DNA from: Candidatus Campbellbacteria bacterium
GTDB taxonomy: Bacteria; Patescibacteriota; Minisyncoccia; Phycocordibacterales; EsbW-18
Direction of reading: 5' to 3'
DNA length: 64,000 nt
NCBI GenBank assembly: GCA_016699465.1
Contig: CP064977.1
Location: forward strand, 478,503 to 542,502
The position numbers and the translations under genes are program-made. Below the pieces are notes generated by a model. That model was not told where the DNA came from. It did no database searches and saw nothing but the letters and a program-made list of their open reading frames with translations. This document shows, piece by piece, positions 1,883-54,203 of the stretch; the first letter of the stretch is position 1; each line of letters begins with the position of its first letter.

Positions 1883-3664
1883 TTATTCTTTGTGGATGTC
1901 AACAATCCTCAATCGGATGCCGTTCGTGTATCCAAATGTTTCTTTTTCCATAGAAGCAAGAAGTGTAATGGACTGCCCTGCCGACACACGTTCCAAGGTT
2001 TCGTTTCCCTTTGCAAAAAACTTCACAGCAGAAATCATTTTTCCTCCCGAGGTCTTAAAGAGTAATTTGAGATGTTGTTTTTCTTTTCCAAACATTTCAA
2101 TCCTATCAACAAGTATGTTTTCAAATGCAAACACAGGCTTTGGATTACCTGCCCCAAATGGCGCAAGGTGAGAAATACTTTCGTATACTTCTCGTGTCAC
2201 ATCATCGAGAGAAAGCACTGCATCAACGGTCATTTTTTCCTCAGATACTTCCTTAGACGCCAATTTTGTATGTGCATCTGAAAGTGCGGCCTCCAGAAGC
2301 ATAAGATTTTCAACTGTAATAGAAAACCCGCCCGAGTATTTGTGTCCTCCAAATTCAAGAAACAAGTGTCGCACCTCACTCATTAATTCCATCGCACCAA
2401 CACGACCATCAGATCGTACTGAACCTTTAATCACTGACGCATCGCCTCGCCCCCACACAAAGGCACTTTTTCCATACGCTTCCACTACGTGTGTTGCAGC
2501 AAGCCCAAGCAATCCCGGACGCCAGTGTGTATTCCCCACGACAATAACCGGAAGTTCATGCGGTGTTTCTTCAAACTTTTGTTTTATCTCTTTACTCATC
2601 TGCGCCACCGCGCCCTTTCGTTCGTTGTTAATAGAATCCAAGTGGCGCACGAGATTTTCTGCCTCAGTGAGGTTCGTTGTTGAGAGAAGTTGAAAGGCCG
2701 CCTCAGGTTCGTCCATACGCGATGCAGCGTTAATACGCGGGGTAATCATAAATACAACGTCATCCTCAGTCAGTGAATACTGTTTCATTCGGAGGTGCGA
2801 CAACAGTGTGCGAATACCAAGGCGTGGTGATTTTTTTAGCACTAAAAGTCCGTAGTGCGCAAAGACACGATTTTCTCCTGTCAGTGACACCATGTCAGAG
2901 AGCGTTGCAATACCCACCATGTCGAGTAACCATTTCTCCCAACCAATAGGAATGTCTTTTTTTGCCTTCAATAAGAGCGCTTGCGCAATTTTGAAAGCAA
3001 CACCTGCTCCACAAAGGTTTTTGTTTGGATACTCGTCTCCCTCTTGGTTTGGATTTACAATCGCATACGCTTTTGGCACGTCGTGATTTTGCATGTGGTG
3101 ATCGGTAATGATGACATCAATACCCGCATCCATCGCCCGAGCAACGTGCACCACATCTCCCATTCCACAATCAAGTGTGATAACGAGCCCAACCTTCTTG
3201 TCAATGAATGTTGAAATAGCATCTTCATTGAGTCCAAACCCTTCTGTGTTGCGGTGTGGGATGGTGACAGAGAAATTTTCATATCCTATTTTCTTCAAGA
3301 GGTCATGCATCACCACAGCAGACGGAATACCGTCGGCATCAAAATCAGAAAAGAGAGCGATATGTTCGTTACGCTCTACAGCCGACAGAATACGCTCAAT
3401 CGCTTTTTTCATGTCTCGCAACAAAAATGGATCATGCCCATCGTGGTCATATCGCGGTGAAAGAAAAGCATGGGCACCCTCTTTTGTCCTAATACCACGG
3501 TGAAATAGGAGTTTTTGAATAAGCTCGGAATACTCAGCAAGTTGCCCCCGTGTCTCCTTGTCTGGATTTTCAGCAACTATATACTTCTGTACCTGTTGGT
3601 TATTCATGGAATTGTTAGTATACCACCCCACCACTCTAGACTTTGTACCGATATATCGGTACAA
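1883..3664 (-). CDS. recJ: Single-stranded-DNA-specific exonuclease RecJ
   Basis: The DHH/DHHA1 pattern DFDADGIPSAVVMHDLL...ITDHHM is present. The likely real start is the internal Met (MNNQQVQK) near 3607, because the first 19 codons are translated from the upstream palindrome. Confidence 0.9.
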   Translation of the reverse strand: MYRYIGTKSRVVGWYTNNSMNNQQVQKYIVAENPDKETRGQLAEYSELIQKLLFHRGIRTKEGAHAFLSPRYDHDGHDPFLLRDMKKAIERILSAVERNEHIALFSDFDADGIPSAVVMHDLLKKIGYENFSVTIPHRNTEGFGLNEDAISTFIDKKVGLVITLDCGMGDVVHVARAMDAGIDVIITDHHMQNHDVPKAYAIVNPNQEGDEYPNKNLCGAGVAFKIAQALLLKAKKDIPIGWEKWLLDMVGIATLSDMVSLTGENRVFAHYGLLVLKKSPRLGIRTLLSHLRMKQYSLTEDDVVFMITPRINAASRMDEPEAAFQLLSTTNLTEAENLVRHLDSINNERKGAVAQMSKEIKQKFEETPHELPVIVVGNTHWRPGLLGLAATHVVEAYGKSAFVWGRGDASVIKGSVRSDGRVGAMELMSEVRHLFLEFGGHKYSGGFSITVENLMLLEAALSDAHTKLASKEVSEEKMTVDAVLSLDDVTREVYESISHLAPFGAGNPKPVFAFENILVDRIEMFGKEKQHLKLLFKTSGGKMISAVKFFAKGNETLERVSAGQSITLLASMEKETFGYTNGIRLRIVDIHKE

Positions 3665-3666
3665 AG
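3639..3666. promoter_or_regulatory. 28 bp perfect palindrome ACTTTGTACCGATATATCGGTACAAAGT, a candidate operator
   Basis: A perfect inverted repeat sits between the TrpR-like gene stop and the recJ start. Its 20 bp core TGTACCGATATATCGGTACA is repeated exactly at 4081-4100 and 49141-49160. Confidence 0.55.
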
Positions 3667-4074
3667 TTATTTTTCAGTTAACCGGTATATTCTATGCCAT
3701 CGACCCCGACCTTGCGGTGGAAGACCTGCACGTAACATATATTCAATATCTTTCCAAAAATGCAAATTTCTCTTTTCAAGAAAGCAAACAAGTTGAGCGA
3801 TTCTTTTAAATTCCGTTGCTGCAGAAAACCGTTGGGCCGTTGAAATACTCAGACCAAGAATCTCACTCACCCTTCTCACCGGAACACCTTTTGATAACAA
3901 GTGAATTGCGGCAAGACGTTTTGCAAGCATAATTCGTTCGGTTTTTGTAAGCAGTCCGTGCACTAATAAAAGCGCATCCTTTGTTTCATTGGCACGAGAT
4001 ACGTTATGCACCAAATCACGAAAAATCGTTTGAAGAACTTTCTCGGAAATCTTTTTTCTTGAAACGTGCGGCAT
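3667..4074 (-). CDS. TrpR/YerC-family helix-turn-helix regulator
   Basis: The C-terminal part of the 218 aa track ORF starts at MPHVSRKK. It contains LLTKTERIMLAKRLAAIHLLSKGVPVRRVSEILGLSISTAQRFS, which fits the Trp-repressor/YerC HTH pattern. The upstream part of the ORF is low-complexity read-through. Confidence 0.6.
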   Translation of the reverse strand: MPHVSRKKISEKVLQTIFRDLVHNVSRANETKDALLLVHGLLTKTERIMLAKRLAAIHLLSKGVPVRRVSEILGLSISTAQRFSAATEFKRIAQLVCFLEKRNLHFWKDIEYMLRAGLPPQGRGRWHRIYRLTEK

Positions 4075-4080
4075 ACATAA

Positions 4081-4100
4081 TGTACCGATATATCGGTACA
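4081..4100. promoter_or_regulatory. 20 bp perfect palindrome TGTACCGATATATCGGTACA, a candidate autoregulatory operator
   Basis: It begins 7 bp upstream of the ATG of the TrpR/YerC-like gene, in the region divergent from the HIT gene. Confidence 0.55.
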
Positions 4101-4185
4101 GACTAATATAAAGTAGTAAACTAAAGGAAATATAAAGAACGTGGTCTTGTATTGAACCATATAAAAAGACTATACTAATCGGTAT

Positions 4186-5177: not shown

Positions 5178-6302
5178 TCAATCTTTGAGTGCGTCAATTC
5201 CGGGAAGTGTTCCTTGTGCCAAGAATTCCAACATGGCCCCACCCGCAGATGATGTAAATGTAAACGTTCCCGAAATATGCCCCTCAGCAAGTACTGCATC
5301 TGTGTCGCCACCACCAACAATACTTTCGGCGCGCGATGACGCAATAGCACGAGCACACTCTTGTGTTCCAACAGAAAATCCTTTTTCATACAATCCAAGT
5401 GGGCCATTCCACAATACAAATGCAGCACTAGAAACCACCTGTGCGAGGTGTGCGAGTGTTTCTGGGCCAGCATCCACAATGGTGTCATCTGGGCCAAGTG
5501 CTTCCGGCGTAAGCACGTGCTCTTTCCCATCTACACCAAGTGTGAGGACATCTGTGTACGTCGACACGTGCGGCATTGCCACAATAGTTCGAAGTACTTC
5601 CTCATTCACGGACGCAACTCGAGATGTTCCCACAGAAAATCCTTTTGTTTTAAGTAGCGAGTTTCCCGACACACCAAACACAAAAACACTATCCATATGT
5701 GGAGCAAGAGCGGTAATAATCGGAAGTTTTGTTTCAGGTTTTGCACCTCCCACAATAAGAACAGCTGGGTGCTGTGGATGAAATGCTTCAGAGAGGTGCT
5801 CATACTCTTCTGCAAAACGTATACCCATATAGCTTGGAATGTAGTGTGGAACGCCAACGATTGATGCGTGCACGCGATGCGCAGAGGTAAAATCATCATT
5901 TACAAATATATCAGCAAGCCCAGCAAGTTTTTGTGCAAACGCTTCATCATTTTTTTCTTCTTCTGGAAATTGACGAATATTTTCAAGACACACAATATCT
6001 CCATCCTGCATATGCTCCAGCTTCTCTTTTCCCACCTCATCAAATGGCGATTCCAGAAACGAGACCGGCACGTGTTGTGCAAGAATATCTGCGACTGGTT
6101 TTAATGATTCACCTTCTACAGACACGTGTCCTACGAGAATTGTTTTAGCACCCTTTCCTTTTAAAAAACGGAGTGTTGGAAGATTTCCTAAAGCTCGCGA
6201 CGTGTCAGCAACACTTCCCCGCTCCATGGGAACATTTAAATTTGCACGAACCAACACACGCGTGCCCGGTAAAATTGTTGCTTCGGTAATAGATTTCAAC
6301 AT
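5178..6302 (-). CDS. pgk: Phosphoglycerate kinase
   Basis: Full-length PGK signature, including the RANLNVP N-terminal region and the GGGDT..A..EG C-terminal motifs. Confidence 0.95.
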   Translation of the reverse strand: MLKSITEATILPGTRVLVRANLNVPMERGSVADTSRALGNLPTLRFLKGKGAKTILVGHVSVEGESLKPVADILAQHVPVSFLESPFDEVGKEKLEHMQDGDIVCLENIRQFPEEEKNDEAFAQKLAGLADIFVNDDFTSAHRVHASIVGVPHYIPSYMGIRFAEEYEHLSEAFHPQHPAVLIVGGAKPETKLPIITALAPHMDSVFVFGVSGNSLLKTKGFSVGTSRVASVNEEVLRTIVAMPHVSTYTDVLTLGVDGKEHVLTPEALGPDDTIVDAGPETLAHLAQVVSSAAFVLWNGPLGLYEKGFSVGTQECARAIASSRAESIVGGGDTDAVLAEGHISGTFTFTSSAGGAMLEFLAQGTLPGIDALKD

Positions 6303-6311
6303 ATGAATACT

Positions 6312-7073
6312 CTACAGTTCTAACGCGGCAAGCATATCCGCAACATTACGTGCAACAAGACTTGCTCGCCCAACAAGAACACCTTGTACCGTTCCCTCAT
6401 GAACAATACGTGCAATATTATGTGGCTCAACTGAACCGCCATACAAAATGGGAACCGTCATCCCAGTCGCACGACCATACATGCGTGAAAGTATTTTTCG
6501 TATAAACAGTGTTGATTCATGCACATCACTTGGATTCATGGCATACAATGAAGCCTTACCAATTGCCCATACTGGCTCGTACGCAATAATCACTTTTGCT
6601 ATTTTTGCCTTTGAAATACCTTTCAAGGATTCTCGGAGTTGCTCTTCAATAACGGCAAGATGCTCTCCATGTTCTCCGCGCTCATGTTCTCCAACGCACA
6701 CAATAGGCGTCAGTCCCGCAGCAAGTACTTCACGCGTCTTATGAGCAACCTGTGTGGGTGTCTCACCACCCGCGCGTCGTTCTGAATGCCCTACAATGAC
6801 GTATCGCACACCAACACTCTTCAGCATTGCCGTTGAAACTTCTCCTGTGTGTGCCCCATCAGAAAAAACAGAAACATCTTGTGCTCCAAGAAAAACAAAA
6901 CCGTCACTTTTATTCGAGCAACTCACACAAAACGGTGTTGGTGGACAGACAACAACACTTGTCTTTTTTATTTTTCGAGCATATTTTTTTGTTGCACTCC
7001 ATAGTGCAACTGCCTCACGCGCTGACGAAGGATTCATCTTCCAATTTGCTACAAAAAGTAATTTCATAGGCAC
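6312..7073 (-). CDS. tpiA: Triosephosphate isomerase
   Basis: FVANWKMN, the catalytic region VIVGHSERR and the AYEPVWAIG motifs are present. Confidence 0.95.
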   Translation of the reverse strand: MPMKLLFVANWKMNPSSAREAVALWSATKKYARKIKKTSVVVCPPTPFCVSCSNKSDGFVFLGAQDVSVFSDGAHTGEVSTAMLKSVGVRYVIVGHSERRAGGETPTQVAHKTREVLAAGLTPIVCVGEHERGEHGEHLAVIEEQLRESLKGISKAKIAKVIIAYEPVWAIGKASLYAMNPSDVHESTLFIRKILSRMYGRATGMTVPILYGGSVEPHNIARIVHEGTVQGVLVGRASLVARNVADMLAALEL

Positions 7074-7097
7074 TTATTGTACCACGAAGCCCACATC

Positions 7098-8498
7098 CTA
7101 CTCGATTTCCTCCCACGAAATAGTCACATATTGGTCGGCCGTCAATGGGAACGATGGTGGTGGTGCATAGAGAAGGTTTGCATCATAAATATAATTACGA
7201 GTCGCATACCCGTCAGGGTCATACCAAAAGCCCGAACGTTGGTTTGTTCCCAACATACCATACGTGGTAAGAAGTGTACGCGCGTGGTTTGGAGAACACC
7301 CTGTAGAATAACTATATCTACCAATTCTCCCGTTTTGAGCAATAATCGCAGCATCTATACGCAAATCATCTTCACTTACCAAACCAACATTGAAGTCTCC
7401 TTGTGCAATCAAACCAATGACATCAGATCCATCATAGCGAGTATACCGAATATCATTGGTAACATTAATATTTTTTCTTGTTGACGGATTATCTGGAAAA
7501 CGAGCAGCGCCAATAGTTAAACGCGCGCCATCAATTGTTCCATTTATCCACACATGATCTTCAACAAAAATGAGACCATTCGTTGGAAATGCATAATTGG
7601 CGACAAAGGTTTCTCCACCACTCTTAATACTCAATGTTCCACACCCTGTCCCCGTACACGAACAACCATTCTTTGAGTACATGGTATTTACCTTATACAA
7701 ATCAAACGTGTCATTTGTCTTGAGAACAATGTGATATCCCAACACCCCCGATGCTGCAAAATATCGTCCCGCTGATTGCGCTGCACTTTTTATTAGAGAC
7801 AAATCAGAAACAATTCCCGTAAAATCAACTGCAGGTACCGGAAACTGTCGTCCCGCCTTAAATACATCTGAACGATTTGGAACCGCCGACGGAGGAAGTG
7901 GGTCTACAGGCGTACTGTGGGTATGTACCCCAAACTCTTTTGCTCCCGTATGATCAGGGTCATCAAACGTCGACGTCGCACTCGTTACTAAGTTGTACGC
8001 GACACCGTCAAAACGAAGTCCTGTGTTTGAATGAATCGGGCCGTACACATTTGCCGTTGATCCAAAGTTTACAAAGCTATTCAGCACCCACGCGTACTTT
8101 GCAAATGATGGAATTGCAAAAAGAACTTCAACAGTTCGAGAAATTGTTGGTTCTGCAAGTGTAGACCCTGTCGAGCGCACCCGCACAATCGTCGAACCAA
8201 CTGTCGGCGGTGTAATGGTAAGTGAAAAATGCCCAATAACATCACCTTCTTTGTTACGAAATTCGTGTATGTACGGTCCTGATGTTGCCGTTCCGTCTCG
8301 ATAATCAGTAGGCGCATGTGCTAAATGCCAACGATAATAATCAATACCAGCTTCCGCAATATGAAAAGAAAGTTCTCGAGACGTTGCCGTTCGCAATACA
8401 CGCGCATTTGTTCCAGCCCACGAAACAAGTCCTGTGAGCATTACAATACCAAGAGACGCAAGAACCAAAACAGTCACCAGCATTTCTCCTTTTGACAT
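7098..8498 (-). CDS. Secreted or membrane-anchored protein in the pilus cluster, possibly a pilus-associated adhesin or minor pilin
   Basis: A large protein with an N-terminal TM/signal segment (MSKGEMLVTVLVLASLGIV). It sits in an operon with the prepilin genes. There is no clear GFxxxE prepilin motif, so the role is inferred from context. Confidence 0.45.
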   Translation of the reverse strand: MSKGEMLVTVLVLASLGIVMLTGLVSWAGTNARVLRTATSRELSFHIAEAGIDYYRWHLAHAPTDYRDGTATSGPYIHEFRNKEGDVIGHFSLTITPPTVGSTIVRVRSTGSTLAEPTISRTVEVLFAIPSFAKYAWVLNSFVNFGSTANVYGPIHSNTGLRFDGVAYNLVTSATSTFDDPDHTGAKEFGVHTHSTPVDPLPPSAVPNRSDVFKAGRQFPVPAVDFTGIVSDLSLIKSAAQSAGRYFAASGVLGYHIVLKTNDTFDLYKVNTMYSKNGCSCTGTGCGTLSIKSGGETFVANYAFPTNGLIFVEDHVWINGTIDGARLTIGAARFPDNPSTRKNINVTNDIRYTRYDGSDVIGLIAQGDFNVGLVSEDDLRIDAAIIAQNGRIGRYSYSTGCSPNHARTLLTTYGMLGTNQRSGFWYDPDGYATRNYIYDANLLYAPPPSFPLTADQYVTISWEEIE

Positions 8499-9248: not shown

Positions 9249-11096
9249 TCATTCTGGAGTAAGTGTTGCTTCATACGATACAAAATCACTAGTTACTGAA
9301 AGTGGTGCACTCGTGTACGGCTGATATCCCGATTTTGAAACAGATACGGTGTACACGCCGTCTGAAAGACCAGAAAATGTCACCTGACCAGGAGGAACGC
9401 ACTCTGAAGTAAACGTGAACGAGATATCAGAAATAGTCGGCGTAACCGAAACATCATCGGTTGCCAAAAAAACTTTATACCTAAAATACCTGTTCATGTT
9501 GTGTATTGGATTAATATTCTGATCCGCAAGCGTGTAGTACGTACCTGTTGTTCCGTCGGGACCCAAAAAATTCCACGTTGTCGTCGCCGCATCATTACTA
9601 GTGGCAACTTGTAACCGAACAGCATTTTGCCCTGCAAGAGGCGGCTGATCTTCGGACTGCCATGCAATTCGATAAAAATTACTTGGTGAAGCAACGTCAA
9701 AAATTGATGATGTTAAGTTTCCTGACGGTGTATATGTTCCCGCAAAACGTACGAGCGTTAACACGCCCGCGGGCGCACTTGTTTCTATACCAGCGTCATG
9801 TGAACTATAATTTGAACCCCCGGACCACAACTCTTCACCAGAACCACCCGACCAATCCGTCTGTCGCAAAAATCCACGACCAGTTGTCTGTGTTTCTCCT
9901 CCAGAAATTTCAACATCAGCTTCAGAAATTGGTAATCCCGTACCGCTATCTTTTACTGTCACCAACAACGCATTGGGGTCAGCTGGACCAACAACAACAC
10001 GAACGTCAAGATTTGAATTTGGGGCAATAATAGGAGGAAGAAGCGGGATAAGTCCGAGAAGTTGGTGAGTCCCATCATTAACCGAGAGTGTGTACGTGTC
10101 CCACTCAAGATCATTAATAACTTTTTCCCCAACATAATTTGTTGTGTGTGTCTGGTAGTATTTGTTCACGTCTGGACTTGTTCCTATTAATTTACTTCCC
10201 CGCACACCAACACTCACACTTGGAACAACCGTGCATGTTTGCGTAACACTTTGTATACTCAGCGAACTCAAAAGATCGATTGAAAAACTAATCTGCGTTA
10301 CCTGCTGTTGTGCAACTGTTGCAAAAGGTTTTGTTGGGTTTGGATTACCTGTTGTTCCTTCGTACGTTTGGTCCGAAGAGTACCCTTCTTTGCTCACAAA
10401 CACCTGGTATGCACCCGCACCAGGAGGAATATCCACAAGTTGGAGCACCCCATTGGCGTCCGTCACATCATCAATACGAATGTGTGGAGTTACTTGATTA
10501 TTTTCAACGCGCACATCAGCAGCTTGTACGGGTACCCCGTTGGCATCAAATACTCGAATAAAGAGCGCCCCGTTTGTTGACGCCATCTCAAGATTTTTTG
10601 GACTCACACGAGTCGTAAATATTGCTGAAGAAAAATTTCTACATGCCGCACACGTGATCTTTGCTTCAACGAGCTTATAGTCTGCAGGAGAAATATCATT
10701 GGGAGTTCCGCCGAGCACTCCATCAAACGGATCGTCAATGTTTCGAACTGTTGTCGTCACGGTAAACGTAATACCGTCACGCACAAGTGTTTGTATGTGT
10801 GGAACCAATCCTGAGGGAATACTGTTCACCACACCGACTTTTGCATATGGCATATTTCGAATAATTTCAAACTGCTCAGTTGCAAGTGACGACGCAACGA
10901 GGTTGACCCGCGATGAATCAATAACATTAAACAGTGTTATGTATGCTTGGTATAACCCAACTGCAATAATCAAAAAAAGTGCCGACGCAATGAGCGTTTC
11001 AACAAGTGTAAATCCTTTTTTTGTGTACCCCACAACACGTAACACGCAATATGTATTCGTACCTTTTTTTATTTTGTTACATGCTTCAAGTTTCAT
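9249..11096 (-). CDS. Large prepilin-type protein (pseudopilin or pilus tip protein)
   Basis: KKGFTLVETLIASALFLIIAVGL is a prepilin N-terminus, followed by a long beta-rich extracellular region. Confidence 0.7.
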   Translation of the reverse strand: MKLEACNKIKKGTNTYCVLRVVGYTKKGFTLVETLIASALFLIIAVGLYQAYITLFNVIDSSRVNLVASSLATEQFEIIRNMPYAKVGVVNSIPSGLVPHIQTLVRDGITFTVTTTVRNIDDPFDGVLGGTPNDISPADYKLVEAKITCAACRNFSSAIFTTRVSPKNLEMASTNGALFIRVFDANGVPVQAADVRVENNQVTPHIRIDDVTDANGVLQLVDIPPGAGAYQVFVSKEGYSSDQTYEGTTGNPNPTKPFATVAQQQVTQISFSIDLLSSLSIQSVTQTCTVVPSVSVGVRGSKLIGTSPDVNKYYQTHTTNYVGEKVINDLEWDTYTLSVNDGTHQLLGLIPLLPPIIAPNSNLDVRVVVGPADPNALLVTVKDSGTGLPISEADVEISGGETQTTGRGFLRQTDWSGGSGEELWSGGSNYSSHDAGIETSAPAGVLTLVRFAGTYTPSGNLTSSIFDVASPSNFYRIAWQSEDQPPLAGQNAVRLQVATSNDAATTTWNFLGPDGTTGTYYTLADQNINPIHNMNRYFRYKVFLATDDVSVTPTISDISFTFTSECVPPGQVTFSGLSDGVYTVSVSKSGYQPYTSAPLSVTSDFVSYEATLTPE

Positions 11097-11106
11097 GTAC
11101 TATTCT

Positions 11107-12315
11107 TTAAATTCCTGATGAAAGTGAGTAGATTGGTGAAATCATTGATATTGCAAAAAATCCAACCGCCGCACCAATGATAACCATCAGCACCGGTTCG
11201 ATAATTGTGGACATATCTTTTGTTCGCTGGTCCACTTCTGTTTCAAAAAAGGTGGCAATCTGCAAAAACATGTCTGGCACCTTTCCTGTTTCTTCTCCAA
11301 CCGCAACCATTTCAGTCACCATAGGTGGATACAGGTGTGGGTAGCGTGCAAAAACAGCAGAAAGCTGGGTTCCTTTTTGAATTTCTGTTTCCGCTTCCAA
11401 AAGCACCGCTTTGTAATAGGAATTTTGAAGCACTTCAGTTGTGATAGTAATTGCAGACACAACATCCACACCAGAAGAAAGGAGTGATGCAAATGTTCGC
11501 GACATACGCGCAGAGTTTGTTTGTTGAACAAGTCCCTTAATCACCGGCATGTGCATAATGGCGGTTTCAAATAGTCGTTTCCCTTTTTTCGTACGAAATA
11601 CTTGCACACACACAAGAACAAACCCAATCATTCCACCTATGTACAGAAGTGGGTGCGCAGCGAGCCCGTCTGAAACAGTAACGATAAATTGCGTTGTCAT
11701 TGGCAAATCAACATTCATTTCTTTAAATGTTGAGGTAAGTGTCGGCACAACGTACATGAGCATGAGAATACCGATGATTACCATGAGCGTCATGATAATC
11801 GTTGGGTACATCATTGCCCCACGAATACGTCGACGCAGAGCAAAACTTCTATCCATCTGTTCTGCAGTAATGCGCAACGACTCTCCGAGTTTTCCCGATT
11901 CTTCTCCTGCGCGAACCATTGCAATAAAGAGTGTTGAAAACACATCTGGAAATTTTTCAAAGGCTGCAGAAAGAGGTGTTCCTTTCTGAACTTCCGAGCT
12001 AATAACTGAGAGTGTCTCGCGAAACTTACGACTCTCTGATTGCTTCTCCATAATTGAAATGCCACGCGACACAGTGAGACCTGCATCAACCATTGTTGCA
12101 AGATTTTTTGCAAAGGTAATCTTTTCAGTAAGCTTGATACGACTAAAATCCAAATTGAATTTTTGAAGCCACGACTTCTCTTTTATTTCATTTGCAGAAA
12201 TAAGTGTTTCTCCCTCACTAGAAAGTTGTTTGGCAAGTGCAAATGAATCTTCCGCTTCTCCGGTTTTTTCGTACACTTCACCTGTTGTAGAAACCGCCTT
12301 GTACTTTAAATGCAT
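11107..12315 (-). CDS. pilC: Type IV pilus assembly platform protein PilC (GspF family)
   Basis: Two GspF-type repeats and a polytopic membrane topology. The likely start is the internal Met (MHLKYKAV). Confidence 0.85.
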   Translation of the reverse strand: MHLKYKAVSTTGEVYEKTGEAEDSFALAKQLSSEGETLISANEIKEKSWLQKFNLDFSRIKLTEKITFAKNLATMVDAGLTVSRGISIMEKQSESRKFRETLSVISSEVQKGTPLSAAFEKFPDVFSTLFIAMVRAGEESGKLGESLRITAEQMDRSFALRRRIRGAMMYPTIIMTLMVIIGILMLMYVVPTLTSTFKEMNVDLPMTTQFIVTVSDGLAAHPLLYIGGMIGFVLVCVQVFRTKKGKRLFETAIMHMPVIKGLVQQTNSARMSRTFASLLSSGVDVVSAITITTEVLQNSYYKAVLLEAETEIQKGTQLSAVFARYPHLYPPMVTEMVAVGEETGKVPDMFLQIATFFETEVDQRTKDMSTIIEPVLMVIIGAAVGFFAISMISPIYSLSSGI

Positions 12316-12381
12316 GTTTCTATTATCGCACACGTTTGCATAAAAAAATTCCACATGAAGTGGATTTGTGTGCATTTTAGA

Positions 12382-12405
12382 GAATTTTTGTAACAACAAA
12401 AATTC
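12382..12405. promoter_or_regulatory. Palindromic operator GAATTTTTGT-aaca-ACAAAAATTC upstream of pilC
   Basis: 10 bp perfect inverted arms. A second copy with one mismatch lies upstream of pilB at 14401-14424, with about 35 nt of conserved context. Confidence 0.5.
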
Positions 12406-12466
12406 GTGATACAGAGCGAGTCTCTATTTTGTAGAAGCTCCTGCAGGCACGACGGTGCCGGAAGAA

Positions 12467-12492
12467 GAAAACCGCCAACGGGCGGTTTTTGT
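12467..12492 (-). terminator. Intrinsic terminator after pilB, nested inside a 17 bp long-range inverted repeat
   Basis: AAACCGCC-aacg-GGCGGTTTTT. The outer arms CTCTATTTTGTAGAAGC (12422-12438) and GCTTCTACAAAATAGAG (12493-12509) enclose it. Confidence 0.55.
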
Positions 12493-12521
12493 GCTTCTAC
12501 AAAATAGAGGCGAGCGTAGAG

Positions 12522-14270
12522 CTACTCCGTGACCACACGCAACACCTCCTCAAGGGTTGTAAGTCCTTGCACGGCCTTGTACACACCGTCTTCAATCATC
12601 GTCATCATCCCCTCTTTCTTTGCTTGCTCTTCCATTTCTTCCATCGACGCACGCTTAATCATGAGTTCGCGTAGTGCGCTTGAAACCTTGAGTACTTCAT
12701 GAATACCGATACGCCCCTTATACCCATCATCTGTGTCTGTAACATCTTTTGGTCTATAAAACGGGACATCTTTCCATGTCGCATTCTTTGCAACCAATCC
12801 TTCTGTCTTCAAAAAGCCCATCATTCGATCAAGATCAACCGATCTTCCTAGTGCTTTCAACTCATCAGCCGAAAGTGTGTACTTCTCTTTTCGTGCAAGC
12901 ACTCGCACCAAACGCTGTCCAACAATAACCTTGAGTGTTGATGCAATGAGAAATGGCTCTGCACCCATGTCCAACATTCGTGGCACGGCACCCGCAGCCG
13001 AGTTGGTGTGAATTGTTGAGAGCACAAGGTGACCAGTAAGCGCCGCGTTAATCGCGAGCCCAATTGTTTCACCGTCACGAATTTCTCCAACCATAATAAT
13101 GTCAGGATCTTGTCGAACAAGCGCACGTAGTCCATTACCAAACGTCATACCTATTTCTGGTTTTACCTGCGTCTGATTTATTCGTGGCATCTGATACTCA
13201 ATCGGATCTTCAATAGTAGAAATATTGACATCGGGCGTATTCAAAATATCGAGAACAGTATACAGCGTCGTGGTCTTTCCTGAACCCGTTGGACCAGTTG
13301 CGAGAATTAATCCTGTTGCTTGCTTTGTTGCCCAGTGGAGTGCCTCAAGTCCTCCTCCATGAAATCCGAGCGTCTCCAACGTAAAGCCTGATGCTCCTTC
13401 ATGCAAAATACGCATCACAATTTTTTCACCGTAGTAAATTGGAAGGGTTGAAACACGAAAACTCACACGCTCGCTCTCAATATTCATTTTGAATCGCCCA
13501 TCTTGCGGAAGTCGTTTTTCGTCCAGTTTCAAATTTGAAAGCACTTTAATACGCGCAACGATTCCGGCCGTTACTTGTTTCGGAAGCGTCATCGCATCAT
13601 GTAGTAAGCCGTCAATGCGATACCGAATCAACAAATCTTTTTCCATTGGTTCAATGTGAATATCTGAAGCGTTTTCAACAACGGCGTGACGAATAAGTGT
13701 TTCAACAATACGAATCACCGGAAGATCTTCGGCCAATTTTTTGAGTGCTTCTCCAGACGCGTTCTCTCCCACATTTTCAGATGATACGGAAAGCGCAGTG
13801 GCTTCATTTTTGAGAATATCGCCAAATTCCAACTTCAAACTTCGCTGGTATTGAATGAGCGCATGCTTAATCGAGTCAACATCCGTTAATCGTGGAAGAA
13901 TGGTTAGCCCTGTTTTCTTTTTGACAAAATCAATTGCCTTCAAGTCCTGCACGTCAAGCATGGCAACTTCCAGATCTTTTTCTGTTACCCGAAACGCAAT
14001 AATATTATTTGAACGAGCAATCGGTTCGGGAATAAGTGAGAGTGTTTTAAAATCTATCGTTTCATTTTTTAAATCAATAAACGGAATGCCAATAACGTGC
14101 GCCTTCGCACGACGCAAATCGTCTTCGGGAATAATTCCTTCTGACACAATCAAATCCTCAAACGAGATTTTTTTCTTTGTCGCCTCAGCTTCAAGCTCTT
14201 GGGCTTTTCCAAGAGAGAGCATTTTGGTATCAACCAGAAACTGAATGAGTTGTTGTATGTCAAATTGCAT
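12522..14270 (-). CDS. pilB: Type IV pilus assembly ATPase PilB (GspE family)
   Basis: Walker A GPTGSGKTTTLY, the Asp box and the His box of GspE/PilB ATPases are present. Confidence 0.9.
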   Translation of the reverse strand: MQFDIQQLIQFLVDTKMLSLGKAQELEAEATKKKISFEDLIVSEGIIPEDDLRRAKAHVIGIPFIDLKNETIDFKTLSLIPEPIARSNNIIAFRVTEKDLEVAMLDVQDLKAIDFVKKKTGLTILPRLTDVDSIKHALIQYQRSLKLEFGDILKNEATALSVSSENVGENASGEALKKLAEDLPVIRIVETLIRHAVVENASDIHIEPMEKDLLIRYRIDGLLHDAMTLPKQVTAGIVARIKVLSNLKLDEKRLPQDGRFKMNIESERVSFRVSTLPIYYGEKIVMRILHEGASGFTLETLGFHGGGLEALHWATKQATGLILATGPTGSGKTTTLYTVLDILNTPDVNISTIEDPIEYQMPRINQTQVKPEIGMTFGNGLRALVRQDPDIIMVGEIRDGETIGLAINAALTGHLVLSTIHTNSAAGAVPRMLDMGAEPFLIASTLKVIVGQRLVRVLARKEKYTLSADELKALGRSVDLDRMMGFLKTEGLVAKNATWKDVPFYRPKDVTDTDDGYKGRIGIHEVLKVSSALRELMIKRASMEEMEEQAKKEGMMTMIEDGVYKAVQGLTTLEEVLRVVTE

Positions 14271-14400
14271 GTAACGTGGGAATTTGAAATTAGAAGTGAG
14301 ATGTTGGAAACGTGAGGAGTTGGTGATTAGAAAAGATGCAATACTTTAGATTCTATTGTAGCATTTTTTGTTCGCAAAAAAGTCATTTCTATATTTTACA

Positions 14401-14424
14401 GAATTTTTGTAACAACAAAAGTTC
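14401..14424. promoter_or_regulatory. Second copy of the pilus operator (GAATTTTTGTAACAACAAAAGTTC) upstream of pilB
   Basis: 23 of 24 nt match the 12382-12405 site, and the flanks are also conserved. Confidence 0.5.
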
Positions 14425-14451
14425 GGGTACGAAGCACACATACATACAAAA

Positions 14452-14484
14452 ACACCCAGCATGTTTGCTGGGTGTTTTCTTTTC
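14452..14484. terminator. Bidirectional hairpin ACACCCAGCA-tgtt-TGCTGGGTGT plus T tract
   Basis: Stem-loop followed by TTTCTTTTCC, downstream of the SIMPL gene and upstream of pilB. A related ACCCAGCA-armed hairpin lies upstream of the second pilB at 54155-54192. Confidence 0.5.
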
Positions 14485-14520
14485 CGCATAATTTTGCGTA
14501 TAGCCTGCGTCTGTCCGCGT

Positions 14521-15375
14521 CTAGCGAATTTCGTACGTAATAGACACATTCGCCGTAATAGTATTTTGTCCGACAGGGATTTGTGGAGAAACTGATGCGC
14601 TATCACTTGAAACAGTTGCTTCCATACCCTTGTACATGACCGGATAGTACCCACCACCATTTTCTGAGAAGCTCACAATGCGTACCAACTTCACGCCGAG
14701 ATCTTTTGCAAGTTGTTGTGCTTTTGTTTTTGCATCATCAATTGCTTTCTGTCGTGCCTCTCGTTGGAGTGCGACTTCGTCATCAATAGTAAACGTTGGC
14801 CCGTACATGTTTGTTGCACCCTTTGCGCCAATACCTGTAACCAATGCGCCTACTTTTTCTGTATCACGAACTTTTACCGTAATGGTCTGACTTACTTCAT
14901 ACCCAACAAGTACTTGATTCTGTGGAGGATAGTACACAGGCATCATTTCAATACCAGCAGAAGAACCCGCCGACATTCCTGAGGCTGCTGCTGGGACCGA
15001 TGTACCAGACGCGCGATATTCGTATTTTGGATTTGCACTGTAGTTTGCCGTTTGAATATCCTTCTCAGCAACCCCCTGTTCTTTGAGGTATGTCATGATT
15101 GCATTAATTTTTTCTGCCGATGCTGTTTGTGCTTCAGTCAATGTTTTTTTCTCAGCAACAACTGAAAAACCAATTTCCGCAATATCGGGAACAGCAAATA
15201 CTTTTCCTTCTCCGCTCACCGCGATAACGTTCGAGGCAGAAACACCGCCACCAATATATCGATTTTCTTTTAATGCATTAATCGCCAAAACAGCGACAAA
15301 AAGTATGAGAACGATGCAGAGCCATCCTACATACTGTATTGTTTTTTGTGTTACGTTTGTTTCCATAGAGTACAA
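14521..15375 (-). CDS. SIMPL-domain (DUF541 / YggE-like) periplasmic protein
   Basis: N-terminal TM segment plus the SIMPL-type repeat architecture (QQLAKDLGVKLVRIVSFSE). Confidence 0.7.
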   Translation of the reverse strand: MYSMETNVTQKTIQYVGWLCIVLILFVAVLAINALKENRYIGGGVSASNVIAVSGEGKVFAVPDIAEIGFSVVAEKKTLTEAQTASAEKINAIMTYLKEQGVAEKDIQTANYSANPKYEYRASGTSVPAAASGMSAGSSAGIEMMPVYYPPQNQVLVGYEVSQTITVKVRDTEKVGALVTGIGAKGATNMYGPTFTIDDEVALQREARQKAIDDAKTKAQQLAKDLGVKLVRIVSFSENGGGYYPVMYKGMEATVSSDSASVSPQIPVGQNTITANVSITYEIR

Positions 15376-18488: not shown

Positions 18489-18537
18489 ATAAATAGTTGT
18501 TAAAACGTATAACCCTTTTGATGGATATAAGTATAAG

Positions 18538-18551
18538 TGAACGACCGTTCA
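18538..18551. promoter_or_regulatory. LexA box (Cheo-type GAAC-N4-GTTC): TGAACGACCGTTCA
   Basis: A perfect GAAC/GTTC palindrome in the divergent region between the lexA unit and a DUF457-like membrane hydrolase gene. Confidence 0.5.
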
Positions 18552-18602
18552 CCTGTCAAACTATGTATGTGGAAAACTCACTTTTTGCTATACTCTACCT
18601 CA

Positions 18603-30106: not shown

Positions 30107-30232
30107 GTCCTATGCCGCAGTGGTGTAGGACCTTCTTCTTGTCTAACTTTACTCAGTAAGAGAGGATTTGGTCACGTGTAATTTTCTGCTGAAAATTCAC
30201 GCGACCCCGGCTCGGCCCGTCGGCCTCCGCCT

Positions 30233-30249
30233 TTCAAATCCTCTCCTGC
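30233..30249. repeat. 17 nt inverted copy of the tRNA-Leu 3' end (TTCAAATCCTCTCCTGC)
   Basis: It is the exact reverse complement of the T-loop-to-acceptor segment of the tRNA-Leu gene 56 bp away. Confidence 0.7.
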
Positions 30250-30304
30250 TCGTTACATACTGAATACAAAAAAGAATGGCATAGGCCATTCTTTTTTGAT
30301 TCTG

Positions 30305-30388
30305 TGCGCAGGAGAGGATTTGAACCTCCAAGCCCTTGCGGGCGCTACCACCTCAAGGTAGTGCGTCTACCAATTTCGCCACCTGCGC
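30305..30388 (-). tRNA. tRNA-Leu (GAG)
   Basis: Cloverleaf built by hand with a long variable arm. Anticodon loop CTTGAGGT/ TTGAGGT, with GAG in the centre. Confidence 0.85.
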
Positions 30389-37033: not shown

Positions 37034-37119
37034 GCCTCTATTCTACTCACGACAGAGAACAAGCGCAATAAAAAATGTGTTATTGTCGAACAAAAAGAGA
37101 AAGGTTTCGAAACACAGAC

Positions 37120-37522: not shown

Positions 37523-37909
37523 CTACTTGCTCGCTCGTTTTCTATCTAAAAATCTCTGTAAAATAATTGCAGCTGCAGATGCGTCTATCATACTATTTGC
37601 TCCCGTAAATCGTGTTGCTTCCTGTGAGGAAAACCACTCGTGTTCAAACACCACTGGCACAGTAGTTTCTTTTTCAAGATTTTTTTTAAAATTCTGAATT
37701 TCAGGCATAATCACATTATCGTTTCCTTTCGTATCTGCTGAATATCCAAGCACAATAATATTCACATGCTCTTTTTGCGCAATCGCAACAATATCCGACA
37801 CAAGCGTGTGTGTGTTTTGCAAAACCTCCCGTGGAAACGCGAGCGTTTCACTGGTGTCCGACAGCGCGATACCTACGCGTTTTGTTCCATAATCAATGCC
37901 GAGGATCAT
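37523..37909 (-). CDS. ruvX: Putative pre-16S rRNA nuclease / Holliday junction resolvase-like RuvX (YqgF)
   Basis: MILGIDYGTKRVGIALSD N-terminal motif. Confidence 0.85.
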   Translation of the reverse strand: MILGIDYGTKRVGIALSDTSETLAFPREVLQNTHTLVSDIVAIAQKEHVNIIVLGYSADTKGNDNVIMPEIQNFKKNLEKETTVPVVFEHEWFSSQEATRFTGANSMIDASAAAIILQRFLDRKRASK

Positions 37910-38010
37910 GACAATATAACTATAATATACGACCACACATTCTAATAATTCACCTTTATAAAAACTTAGAGGGGTCGCGCATAGCGACCCCTTTCAAAAC
38001 CCATCTCTCA

Positions 38011-38573: not shown

Positions 38574-38729
38574 CTATACAATAAAAAAATACTGTTGCAA
38601 GTTAACCACCGGACCAAAAACACACCGGCCAATGTTTTGCAAAACCTCCCGTGGAAACGCGAGCGTTTCACTGGTGTCCGACAGCGCGATACCTACGCGT
38701 TTTGTTCCATAATCAATACCAAGAATCAT
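38574..38729 (-). pseudogene. Duplicated 5' fragment of ruvX, a truncated 51-codon reading frame
   Basis: 38634-38729 matches 37814-37909 at 92 of 96 nt and encodes MILGIDYGTKRVGIALSDTSETLAFPREVLQN before diverging. Its ATG overlaps the stop of the upstream gene as ATGA. Confidence 0.6.
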
Positions 38730-39034
38730 GTACGTGGAGGTTCCTCAACAGGTATATGGAGTAGTGCAATGACTTCAGCGGCAACTTCTTCGTAGTCACC
38801 TTTTCGGGCGCGTTCACGAATATCTTCACGTTCGGGAGAGTCGAGGGCTTCACTTATACGCCCTAAGTAATTTTGTCCCCATTCGTAGACAGCATTTGAG
38901 TTTGATGCAGCTGCACCAAGCGAGCGTTGAATGATACACCGCCGAAGCATGTTGCGATGAACAAGCTCGAGACGTCTCTCGGGTAATTCTGGTGTCACTG
39001 GCACCTCTGATGCATGATGTTCAAAACCTTCCAT
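38726..39034 (-). CDS. Hypothetical protein, GC-rich
   Basis: 102 aa. Translationally coupled (ATGA) to the ruvX 5' fragment. No RBS. Confidence 0.4.
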   Translation of the reverse strand: MEGFEHHASEVPVTPELPERRLELVHRNMLRRCIIQRSLGAAASNSNAVYEWGQNYLGRISEALDSPEREDIRERARKGDYEEVAAEVIALLHIPVEEPPRT

Positions 39035-40361: not shown

Positions 40362-40447
40362 GGAGGAGTCGGATAGTGGTTTATTCCAGCGCACTTGAAA
40401 TGCGCCGTGCCCACAAGGCACCGTGAGTTCGAATCTCACCTCCTCCG
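40362..40447 (+). tRNA. tRNA-Ser (TGA)
   Basis: Cloverleaf built by hand. Anticodon loop CTTGAAA and a long variable arm. Confidence 0.85.
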
Positions 40448-40449
40448 CA

Positions 40450-40491
40450 ACGATTCACAAGAAGTGCCCTTCGGCACTTCTTGTGAATCGT
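40450..40491. repeat. Perfect 19 bp stem hairpin with a CTTC loop immediately 3' of tRNA-Ser
   Basis: ACGATTCACAAGAAGTGCC-cttc-GGCACTTCTTGTGAATCGT. No U tract follows. Confidence 0.7.
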
Positions 40492-40502
40492 CTACTAGGG
40501 CG

Positions 40503-40518
40503 AGGTGAGATTCGAACG
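40503..40518. repeat. Inverted copy of the tRNA-Ser T-arm/acceptor segment (GAGGTGAGATTCGAAC)
   Basis: It is the exact reverse complement of GTTCGAATCTCACCTC from the tRNA-Ser gene. Confidence 0.65.
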
Positions 40519-40617
40519 ACGGAGCGATATTTTGTCAGTAGACAAAATCGCGAGTCGGTGCCCAGACAAATTTTTTTGACGACAAAATTTAGTCGCGGGA
40601 GAAAAACGTACTCGTGG

Positions 40618-40633
40618 TCTCACCTCCTCCGCA
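40618..40633 (+). repeat. Direct 16 nt copy of the tRNA-Ser 3' end (TCTCACCTCCTCCGCA), a candidate att-site scar
   Basis: It is identical to the last 16 nt of tRNA-Ser, 171 bp downstream. An intrinsic terminator follows at 40648-40668. Confidence 0.65.
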
Positions 40634-40765
40634 CCTGATGCAAAAATGCCCCGCAAGGGGTATTTTTTGTGTCAGGAGGACGAGATTCGAAAGTCGGACC
40701 GAGCAAAGCGAGGGAGACGGGGTCGAGAACACTTAGGATTTTTGATTCCAATGGAAGCAAAAATA

Positions 40766-54118: not shown

Positions 54119-54203
54119 GCGACCTTCTTCTTTTTTCTTCACTTTATTTGCTACACCCAGCACGTAGCTTTCAAAAAAGCTAAGTGCTGGGTACACTATA
54201 GGT

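Follow-up and report, generated by a model that had tools for sequence, protein, structure and literature searches.

Two near-identical palindromes ahead of the type IV pilus genes pilB and pilC are best explained as one part, the hairpin or inverted-repeat module, of a composite element that one Campbellbacteria clade carries in several intergenic copies. We put the explanation as a whole, namely a composite element that acts in single-stranded form, has paralogous copies and lies beside pilus genes with promoters of their own, at a probability of about 55%. On the plus strand the element runs from an ATTTTA box through the palindrome and a conserved linker, GGUACGGAGYGAG, into a three-way junction of ~120 nt. 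A long closing helix (P1), lengthened by tandem G·A pairs, hairpins B (loop GACG) and A, and a tail, CGAGYGnAGAGYUA, make up this junction. We think it most likely that the unit as a whole works as a single-stranded nucleic acid, and its likeliest form would be a small structured plus-strand RNA, antisense to and convergent with pilB or SIMPL, with the palindrome as its 5'-proximal stem-loop. The make-up of the element, its covariation, its strand asymmetry, its copies away from pilus genes, its lack at the pil promoters of relatives and the paralogy of its copies are seen in the sequences; its transcription, the start and end of the transcript and its function we infer. The stretch of DNA analysed, here called the window, is 64 kb long and comes from a Candidatus Campbellbacteria (CPR), and the related DNA with which it was compared comes to ~300 kb in all, taken from parts of genomes.

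The genes concerned lie in the order SIMPL, pilB, pilC, all on the minus strand. The two pilus genes, the palindromes and the boxes beside them are as follows.

12522-14270, minus strand: pilB, the T2SSE (PilB) ATPase
11107-12315, minus strand: pilC, the T2SSF (PilC) platform protein, with its ATG at 12315
12382-12405, no strand assigned: palindrome copy 1, GAATTTTTGT-AACA-ACAAAAATTC, in the pilB-pilC spacer, a perfect 10+4+10 palindrome
14401-14424, no strand assigned: palindrome copy 2, GAATTTTTGTAACAACAAAAGTTC, that is GAATTTTTGT AACA ACAAAAGTTC, in the SIMPL-pilB spacer
12374-12379, no strand assigned: ATTTTA box by copy 1, which reads TAAAAT (minus strand) or (C/T)ATTTT (plus strand)
14393-14398, no strand assigned: ATTTTA box by copy 2, counterpart of the box at 12374-12379

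An earlier note on this DNA described the 24-bp palindromes with the same sequence and coordinates, and it identified both pilus genes correctly without mentioning their strand. The conserved surroundings, which it put at about 35 nt, form a 33-nt block (12374-12406 and 14393-14425) with 31 of 33 positions identical (94%), past which a weaker likeness runs for ~17 nt inside the linker (TTCGnG(a)TACrrAGC). Its range of 70-130 bp to the gene starts agrees with the measured distances from palindrome edge to ATG, 67 nt for pilC and 131 nt for pilB (ATG at 14270). With up to three mismatches allowed, the 24-nt palindrome has two copies in the window against 0.00 expected from 100 dinucleotide shuffles.

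The single difference between the copies gives copy 2 a T·G opposition, and this makes a wobble pair only on the plus strand. Each copy forms a plus-strand hairpin of -8.6 to -9 kcal/mol; the minus-strand hairpin of copy 2 reaches only -5.1 kcal/mol. Covariation within the palindrome itself is limited to one position (4/21), which is C-G in L017, L006 and L030, U·G in window copy 2 (on the plus strand only) and U-A in window copy 1. The strand signal of the palindrome is mixed: copy 2 favours the plus strand, and the single mismatch in L030 is a wobble on the opposite strand. In these changes the palindrome behaves as a stem does, and its loops vary in sequence and length (AACA, AAC, ACA, GGAA, CAGAA). 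As a Rho-independent terminator the palindrome has little to offer, with G-C pairs at two of the ten stem positions, no T-run on either strand and no entry in the terminator scan. The ATTTTA box resembles a -10 box in either direction; it has no -35 or TG partner, and the promoter scan listed nothing there.

What lies beside the palindrome is a much larger structure. A constant linker of 13-16 nt (GGTACGGAG) ties the palindrome to a three-way junction of ~120 nt, and the distance between the two stays constant among the five full copies, independent of which genes flank them and how these are oriented. In the first window copy the parts are the following.

12406-12421, plus strand: linker of copy 1, GUGAUACAGAGCGAG, corresponding to GGUACGGAGYGAG in relatives
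12404-12524, plus strand: three-way junction copy 1, scoring 119 bits with model R1
12422-12438 paired with 12493-12509, plus strand: P1 of copy 1
12446-12459, plus strand: hairpin B of copy 1, with a GACG loop
12468-12489, plus strand: hairpin A of copy 1

The tail of this copy, CGAGCGTAGAGCTA, finishes on the complement of the pilB stop codon, and on the plus strand its fold has an energy of -67.3 kcal/mol and a z of -9.7, compared with -57.9 kcal/mol for the minus strand. Across nine copies of the junction, 28 of the 35 pairs change on both sides in a compensatory way. Paired cells amount to 93.9%, as against 67% in shuffled alignments and 42-52% with the partners slid, and none of 500 shuffles reached the observed pairing values.

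Several features distinguish the two strands of the junction. The minimum free energy is lower on the window-plus (model) strand in all nine copies, by 5-17 kcal/mol, and the copies, which are related and not independent, hold 21 G·U pairs on the model strand, on which the structure was predicted, against five on the opposite one. Tandem G·A pairs (CGAG/CGAG) close P1 on the model strand only, with Watson-Crick pairs in their place in L017b. The model strand is also G-rich, contrary to the local skew. The G·U pairs and the folding energies thus point to the plus strand, antisense to pilB and pilC. A search at the element for signals of a plus-strand RNA gave no convincing promoter and no terminal terminator; in the third window copy and L029 a real terminator hairpin stands immediately 5' of the junction, so that a promoter has no room there, which counts against the RNA reading. 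In addition, inspection of the junction strands by eye revealed no hammerhead-type ribozyme core.

In six of the nine copies the start of the element falls exactly on the stop codon native to the opposite-strand gene (SIMPL or pilB), leaving the protein C-termini unchanged. Such abutment would be most natural for a 3'-UTR element in the gene direction, and it speaks against the RNA reading. One could accordingly see a 3'-UTR or intercistronic element that belongs to the pilB or SIMPL transcript, in which the palindrome would be a stabiliser, a processing hairpin or a weak terminator setting the pilB:pilC ratio. The hairpin that follows the junction in the gene direction is a canonical terminator in L029 and in the third window copy, and hairpin A carries a U-tract in that direction in the SIMPL-pilB-type copies, though not in the copies native to the pilB-pilC site. 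We nevertheless consider this very unlikely: each of the nine copies has its more stable fold on the opposite strand, in the gene direction the G·U and G·A pairs turn into mismatches (A·C and pyrimidine), and the copies at a lexA-like operon lie inverted with respect to the genes that flank them. The palindrome stem is, moreover, AU-rich and has no U-tract.

Two further stretches of the window are related to the element.

14425-14520, plus strand: decayed remainder of the element by palindrome copy 2, with a partial nhmmer match at 14395-14455
30144-30265, minus strand: third, diverged copy of the three-way junction, 21.5 bits

The remainder keeps the linker GGGTACGAAGC, one hairpin (14449-14478) and a tail-like GCGTATAGCC, and has lost P1 and hairpin B. 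The third copy adjoins a tRNA-Leu, just downstream on the same strand. It has the GACG and AGCA loops and the CGUG junction in common with the element, and its energy is lower on the model strand (-55.7 vs -45.0 kcal/mol). A canonical terminator hairpin, 30266-30295, occupies the place of the palindrome there. By eye this hairpin and that at 14449-14478 look like bidirectional terminators, with a G+C-rich stem, an A-run before it and a T-run after it; the terminator scan did not list 14449-14478. Another model match, at 40422-40519, was rejected as a member and is a long hairpin after tRNA-Ser with copies of the tRNA 3' end. Related-looking pieces adjoin tRNA genes, together with duplicated tRNA 3' ends.

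The first window copy, in the pilB-pilC spacer, is 84% identical to the SIMPL-pilB copy of a relative (L017a) and only 50-51% identical to its positional orthologues at the pilB-pilC site (L017b and L027). Because it is closer to a SIMPL-pilB-type copy than to these orthologues, we attribute the twin palindromes of the window to duplication or conversion. The pilB-pilC unit would have descended from the SIMPL-pilB type by duplication or gene conversion over 2 kb, and the junction would later have been lost from the SIMPL-pilB copy. In some relatives the pilB-pilC spacer is only 6-7 nt long, and the comparison shows a formerly tight pilB-pilC operon that has been split in the window lineage by a structured insert of ~150 nt.

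Presence and absence of the element are patchy on a PilB+PilC tree at both sites, and similarity is greater between copies from different sites than between positional orthologues. This pattern would also suit a small non-autonomous mobile element (of the MITE, REP or PATE-like kind) with P1 as its inverted repeats, a palindrome recognised by a transposase and an accidental proximity to pilus genes. Short direct repeats (CTCG...CTCR) do flank the 17-bp inverted arms of P1, and the pieces by tRNA genes can be counted on the same side. Yet these flanking 'repeats' are conserved and read as the tandem G·A motif, and base-by-base covariation in three helices is unneeded for inverted repeats bound by a transposase. 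There are few copies (2-3 in each 40-64 kb of examined sequence, all in a single neighbourhood), no transposase was seen in the DNA examined, and the family appeared neither outside the clade in two large scans nor in viral or phage collections. Both clades have the element at the same two sites, as would be expected of ancient vertical inheritance accompanied by losses, and we hold mobility to be very improbable.

The element also occurs away from pilus genes. In two relatives (L006/L031 and L030) the palindrome and junction lie at a non-pilus site, between an ORF of 115-128 aa and a lexA-like operon and on the strand of those genes. These non-pilus copies are just upstream of the lexA-like operon. 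One of these relatives (contig CAZVYH010000001) has no palindrome at pilB or pilC and keeps both promoters. Upstream of both pilB and pilC the palindrome is found in two species, those of the window and of L017. At pilB and pilC it is absent from L018/L019, L020, L022 and L028 and degenerate in L027, and the promoters persist. In more distant copies other hairpins replace the palindrome; in L029, L022 and window copy 3 its position is held by one of unrelated sequence. Neither the window nor 242 kb of related DNA yielded further copies of the palindrome.

The probable promoters, and a small hairpin between one of them and its palindrome, lie as follows.

14345-14353, minus strand: extended -10 box TGCTACAAT, the probable pilB promoter
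12322-12330, minus strand: extended -10 box TGCGATAAT, 6 nt ahead of the pilC ATG
12343-12364, minus strand: small hairpin TCCACnnnnnGTGGA with T7 after it, separating the palindrome from the pilC promoter, kept in L017 and L018

The pilB box is kept in the window, L017, L018, L020, L027 and L028, whether or not the palindrome is present, and it is overlapped by a TTGCGA-16-TAGAAT match from the promoter scan. The pilC box is kept in the window, L017, L018, L027 and L029, and the pilC mRNA is probably leaderless. Because these extended -10 boxes are conserved across relatives, pilB and pilC very probably have separate promoters, and that part of the earlier interpretation stands. Its other part, a pilus operator shared by the two promoters, is not supported, given the variable distances and the non-pilus copies.

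The earlier note had one dimeric factor co-regulating the two promoters from the palindrome as a double-stranded operator, and there is something to be said for it. The half-sites hardly vary among six copies whose adjoining junctions are only 50-84% identical, the palindrome stands ahead of both genes in the window and L017, and the spacer between half-sites is uniform within a genome (6 nt in the window, 5 nt in the L017/L030 genome). Additionally, some palindrome-promoter spacings differ by roughly whole helical turns. Against this, the palindrome is tied to the junction and not to the promoters: with respect to the predicted, unmapped starts of the extended -10 promoters its centre falls at -64.5, -44, -78.5 and -76, and it never overlaps these promoters. 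A terminator-like hairpin stands between it and the pilC promoter, the pil promoters of relatives do without it, and at the non-pilus site there is no promoter in reach. Half-site spacing varies between genomes, and duplication explains the identity of the window copies. The note had also proposed a search for the 24-mer upstream of other pilus genes, and in the window this gave no palindrome upstream of pilM/pilN, a second PilB-like ATPase gene or pilin-like genes. Co-regulation of this kind therefore seems distinctly unlikely. Because the palindromes are a module of a larger folded repeat that is also found away from pilus genes, they are probably not a pilus-specific operator. In the composite-element explanation, transcription of the pilus genes would start from extended -10 promoters of their own, situated downstream of the element, and the element would be a neighbour of these genes and not an operator for them.

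The conservation of the arms deserves separate attention. The inverted half-sites, GAAYTTTTG and CAAAARTTC, are almost invariant in six copies, and the gap between these 9-nt arms is 6 nt in the window (two copies) and L006 and 5 nt in each of the three copies that the L017/L030 genome carries, constant inside each genome and different between genomes. Near-invariant arms beside junction helices that drift to 50% identity suggest sequence-specific recognition, possibly of double-stranded DNA, an observation that weighs against the RNA reading. Because the arms are far better conserved than the neighbouring helices, it is possible that a protein recognises the palindrome. Such a protein might bind the double-stranded palindrome and so control not the pilus genes but the adjacent junction, as a gene for an RNA, or else both divergent units, in the manner of the palindromic box upstream of multi-copy small RNAs such as RsmX/Y/Z. 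The fixed distance from palindrome to junction in full copies regardless of neighbours, the conserved arm sequence with its genome-specific spacing, and the survival of palindrome and linker after loss of the junction in window copy 2 would all agree with this. On the other hand, no recognisable -10 element lies between palindrome and junction, and our analysis yielded no candidate regulator. In clade B and window copy 3, unrelated hairpins or terminators substitute for the palindrome, and the junction therefore does not need it as a site. We regard this reading as unlikely, and prefer the palindrome as a hairpin module of the composite element.

Searches of databases gave no known family, and look-ups of the exact PilB and PilC products of the window returned no match. 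Rfam 15 found only tRNAs over the whole window, and permissive Rfam searches with three element copies gave ~20 bits at most, nothing consistent and no family at its gathering threshold. The best Rfam alignment, to TD-2 RNA (RF03162, a repeated motif of Treponema denticola), is insignificant, at 20.4 bits against a gathering score of 48.7 and with an E-value of 0.67. It covers two successive hairpins, the second of the GAGUUUU...AAAACUC kind over the palindrome, and leaves the junction uncovered. Membership was rejected since the score is below gathering and the match was not reproduced with other copies. A scan of a genome collection for GAAYTTTTGT-N4-ACAAAARTTC gave 16 matches, among which that in L006 is the only homologous one; 14 of the 16 come from unrelated phyla with unrelated flanks and are at chance level, and L004, weakly element-like at 13.6 bits, was left out of the analysis. 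A junction-pattern scan of metagenomes gave three matches, all due to chance. Neither of these large scans found family members outside the Campbellbacteria clade, scans of viral contigs and phage BLAST found no element, and a literature search returned nothing relevant to it.

Several known kinds of site were also considered and set aside. A DNA-uptake sequence was rejected with only five half-sites in 64 kb, and a Csr/Rsm-like sponge was dropped because GGA motifs are inconsistent (1-5 per copy, with one in the window copy). The LexA (Cheo-type) box of the same genomes, GTGAAC-N4-GTTCAC, has an outer (C)GAAC...GTTC(G) that resembles the palindrome ends. That box lies between the -35 and -10 of the lexA-like promoter with a fixed 4-nt spacer, unlike the palindrome, which has 15-16 nt between GAAC and GTTC (GAAT...ATTC in window copy 1) and no promoter overlap, and a LexA site was rejected on these grounds. 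Resemblance was all that spoke for an ECF-sigma-like site (GAAC-N16-GTTC) or for the ATTTTA box as a sigma-70 element.

Two groups of known elements invite comparison. Like REP/BIME, Correia, ERIC and RUP repeats, the element is short, multi-copy, hairpin-forming and intergenic or right after stop codons; terminator-like or promoter-like pieces are possible, and copies can be exchanged between sites. Unlike them, it was seen in few copies, its three-way junction covaries and has conserved single-stranded joints, and its strand bias is clear; neither a transposase nor a clear duplication of a target site was found, and the likeness is one of description. The second group is that of multi-copy small RNA families with a common palindromic upstream site, such as RsmX/Y/Z (with the GacA box), Qrr and PrrF. 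Here the likeness lies in several paralogous folded units of ~120-150 nt per genome, a palindrome at a fixed distance ahead, and purine-rich (GGA/GAG) single-stranded junctions. The differences are an inconsistent GGA count, a palindrome that may itself be in the RNA and can be replaced by other hairpins, an element known from sequence alone, and a promoter and terminator that were not found. That palindrome and junction form a new family of multi-copy small regulatory RNAs in Campbellbacteria, with a conserved palindrome, recognised by a clade-specific protein, at the head of each gene, and with copies that are convergent to the SIMPL and pilB stop codons, abut them and have antisense or interference effects on the type IV pilus and DNA-uptake genes needed by these reduced cells, is a doubtful proposition.

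CPR/Patescibacteria cannot be grown alone, and type IV pili are thought to be central to their attachment and DNA uptake. To our knowledge, almost nothing is known of gene regulation and non-coding RNAs in this group. On an ordinary reading, the present analysis removes a false operator call and locates the probable real promoters, both extended -10 boxes, of pilB and of an apparently leaderless pilC. If the element is transcribed, it would be among the first lineage-specific structured RNAs defined in CPR/Patescibacteria, lying directly against the genes for the pilus ATPase and platform protein.

The two near-identical palindromes of this locus, which the earlier note had read as a shared operator of one dimeric factor at pilB and pilC, are real, and their likeness is far beyond chance. 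The 33-nt blocks around them (12374-12406 and 14393-14425) agree at 31/33 positions. No further copy occurs in the window when up to three mismatches are allowed, and chance expectation is likewise none. All genes of the locus lie on the minus strand.

12382-12405: palindrome copy 1, GAATTTTTGT-AACA-ACAAAAATTC, perfect
14401-14424: palindrome copy 2, GAATTTTTGTAACAACAAAAGTTC, with one T·G opposition
15375-14521, minus strand: SIMPL/DUF541 gene, first of the locus
14270-12522, minus strand: pilB (T2SSE), after SIMPL
12315-11107, minus strand: pilC (T2SSF), after pilB
Next after pilC, minus strand: large pilin-like gene

In gene direction, each palindrome stands 3' of the preceding gene and 5' of pilB or pilC, with 131 nt to the pilB ATG and 67 nt to that of pilC. 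Other repeats are also present in the window. A 22-bp perfect palindrome, TTGTACCGATATATCGGTACAA, has three copies (3643-3668, 4080-4105 and 49140-49165) and could be an operator or other recognition site. A long palindrome, ACCCAGCAC...GTGCTGGGT (54152-54192), lies immediately upstream of a second T2SSE ATPase gene (54204-55928). Its stem words have similar counterparts in the SIMPL terminator (14449-14478) and, in the relative's locus L028, in a palindrome (8110-8140) that borders the pilB promoter. A 98-nt direct repeat with 97% identity (37813-37910 and 38633-38730) has its copies 820 nt apart.

PilC matches a Candidatus Campbellbacteria MAG protein at 100% identity and homologues in related MAGs at 80-70%. 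We compared syntenic SIMPL-pilB-pilC loci from seven relatives (L-numbers denote relatives' loci; L017 and L030 belong to one genome). The PilB+PilC tree has two clades: A, with the window, L018/L019, L017 and L027, and B, with L029, L022, L020 and L028. Four pilB-pilC spacers are long (window 206 nt, L017 204 nt, L027 221 nt, L029 187 nt); that of L018 has 82 nt, and those of L020 and L022 have just 6-7 nt.

When the long spacers are aligned, the palindrome turns out to form one end of a larger conserved unit. On the window plus strand, this runs from an ATTTTA box through the palindrome, a linker (GGUACGGAGYGAG) and a ~120-nt three-way junction to a tail (CGAGYGnAGAGYUA). The junction comprises a 17-bp closing stem, P1, a hairpin B whose loop reads GACG, and hairpin A. 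The palindrome keeps a constant distance to the junction, unlike its distance to the promoters. A covariance model of the junction, built from seven copies, recovers all seven (99-119 bits), together with an extra copy in L030 (86.6 bits) and a diverged window copy 3 (30144-30265, minus strand, 21.5 bits) that shares the loops GACG and AGCA and the CGUG junction. Across nine copies, standard pairs fill 93.9% of pair cells, against 67% in shuffles and 42-52% with partners slid, and both sides have changed at 28 of the 35 pairs. No element copy matches Rfam; with the patterns used, no related sequence appeared beyond L006 in 185,579 species genomes, or at all in metagenome, viral and phage collections. 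The palindrome belongs, as one module, to a structured element that is undescribed and confined to this clade; the element is a new family, though of a generally known kind.

Other hairpins can occupy the palindrome position: a canonical terminator in L029 and window copy 3 (bidirectional in the latter) and another inverted repeat in L022, with a degenerate remnant in L027. The patchy presence on the tree fits either repeated loss or the mobility of a MITE/REP-like element; we consider such an element very improbable. Directly after its junction copy, L022 carries a diversity-generating retroelement (bAvd and reverse transcriptase, 5820-8337) between SIMPL and pilB.

Window copy 3 lies directly downstream of a tRNA-Leu on the same strand (30304-30388), the region 30144-30295 including a hairpin. 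L032 has a similar element after tRNA-Leu (~9860-9960), and L031 a weak junction-like match (6637-6790, 15.7 bits) downstream of tRNA-Arg, flanked by direct repeats of the tRNA-Arg 3' end (GTCCTCCCGGAGGGAATCG). At 40449-40640 of the window, a tRNA-Ser is followed by a hairpin with a 19-bp stem, beyond which the tRNA 3' end recurs once inverted and once direct (3'-end copies 40438-40448 versus 40620-40634). Two TTTTGT...ACAAAA-type palindromes in this region (40528-40549 and 40570-40592) are flanked by ACGGAGCGA and CGTAC words resembling the element's linker; the region may represent a scar of integration or else a degraded relative of the element.

The palindrome is not tied to pilus genes, on five grounds, one being the other hairpins found in its place, described above. 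In the relative with contig CAZVYH010000001, the palindrome (GAACTTTTGT-GGAA-ACAAAAGTTC) and junction lie between a 128-aa ORF and a lexA-like operon, ~12 kb from pilB and on the strand of their neighbours, and this relative's pilB and pilC spacers contain no palindrome; the orthologous non-pilus site is occupied in L030 too. In 242 kb of Campbellbacteria DNA, palindromes occur only where joined to this linker (the L030 copy being additional), and in the window none lies upstream of pilM, pilN, the gene for the second PilB-like ATPase or the pilin-like genes. The earlier note was right to infer separate pilB and pilC promoters: extended -10 boxes are conserved at pilB (TGCTACAAT in the window, L017, L020, L027 and L028; TGTTACAAT in L018) and at pilC (TGCGATAAT, 6 nt before the ATG, in the window, L017, L018, L027 and L029). 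Both boxes are kept with or without the palindrome, whose centre lies at -64.5 and -78.5 from the inferred starts in the window and at -44 and -76 in L017, and a hairpin followed by T7 separates the palindrome from the pilC promoter. The earlier note's shared-operator proposal finds no support in these data, and we regard a role as pilus operator as unlikely.

A -10 box 6 nt before the ATG, without a Shine-Dalgarno sequence, is found at pilC (12322-12330), pilM (~37036-37046) and the second pilB-like gene (54189-54203), which suggests that several pilus genes have leaderless mRNAs. The lexA-like (S24 peptidase) operon, with a 64-aa ORF in front, has a clade-wide conserved Cheo-type LexA box, GTGAAC-N4-GTTCAC, between TTGACA and TATACT (window 18520-18556, minus strand; L006 5745-5790; L030 ~14960-15000; L032 ~12340-12380).

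The window pilB-pilC junction is 84% and 69% identical to the SIMPL-pilB-site copies of L017 and L022, and just 50-51% identical to the same-site copies of L017 and L027. The window SIMPL-pilB spacer retains only the palindrome, linker, a tail-like word and one hairpin, which now resembles a bidirectional terminator. The simplest history is that the pilB-pilC spacer received its unit, by copying or conversion, from a SIMPL-pilB-type unit 2 kb away and that the donor site decayed later. On this history the twins' near-identity reflects mainly common descent rather than independent selection at two promoters. Upstream of copy 2, 14364-14400 (TTTTTTGTTCGC...CTATATTTT) resembles L006 5557-5593 (TTTTTGTTCGCG...CTATTTTT), the 3' coding end of the ORF preceding the non-pilus copy in relatives, a hint that the duplicated segment once contained this gene end.

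Four observations favour the window plus strand, antisense to pilB and pilC, as the folding strand, with the caveat that the structure was predicted on that same strand and that the copies are related to each other. Its folding is more stable in nine of nine copies (for example, -58.7 versus -48.9, -47.9 versus -30.9 and -55.7 versus -45.0 kcal/mol), and the complete unit reaches -67.3 kcal/mol (z -9.7) against -57.9 on the other strand. Counted on this plus strand, the consensus helices hold 21 G·U pairs; on the opposite strand the count would be 5. A CGAG/CGAG tandem G·A closes P1 on the model strand only (Watson-Crick pairs replace it in L017b, the copy at the pilB-pilC site of L017), and the model strand is G-rich, opposite to the local skew. 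The palindrome alone gives no clear strand signal.

The tail's final three bases are the complement of the pilB or SIMPL stop codon, and the PilB and SIMPL C-termini are unchanged with or without the element. Such exact abutment would be natural for a gene-sense 3'-UTR or processing element, read in the opposite direction, which we judge quite improbable. Palindrome and junction would instead form one functional unit that works in folded, single-stranded form. The likeliest form is a small RNA transcribed from the plus strand, in which the palindrome would be the 5'-proximal stem-loop. Besides the abutment to stop codons, two points weaken the small-RNA reading: a promoter/terminator scan gave no credible promoter or terminator for the unit, and in two copies a terminator hairpin immediately adjoins the junction on its 5' side.

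In six copies, the palindrome arms are nearly invariant while their junctions have diverged to ~50%. The sole varying arm position, 4/21, runs from C-G through U·G to U-A, and in L030 the top pair is open. The 9-nt arms are 6 nt apart in the window and L006 and 5 nt apart in each of the three copies from the L017/L030 genome, despite differing spacer sequences among those three. These near-invariant arms and the genome-constant spacer suggest recognition by a putative trans-acting factor, whose target could be the hairpin or duplex DNA; that the palindrome acts as operator of the junction RNA gene seems rather unlikely. The element would gain interest if transcription of the antisense strand proves true.
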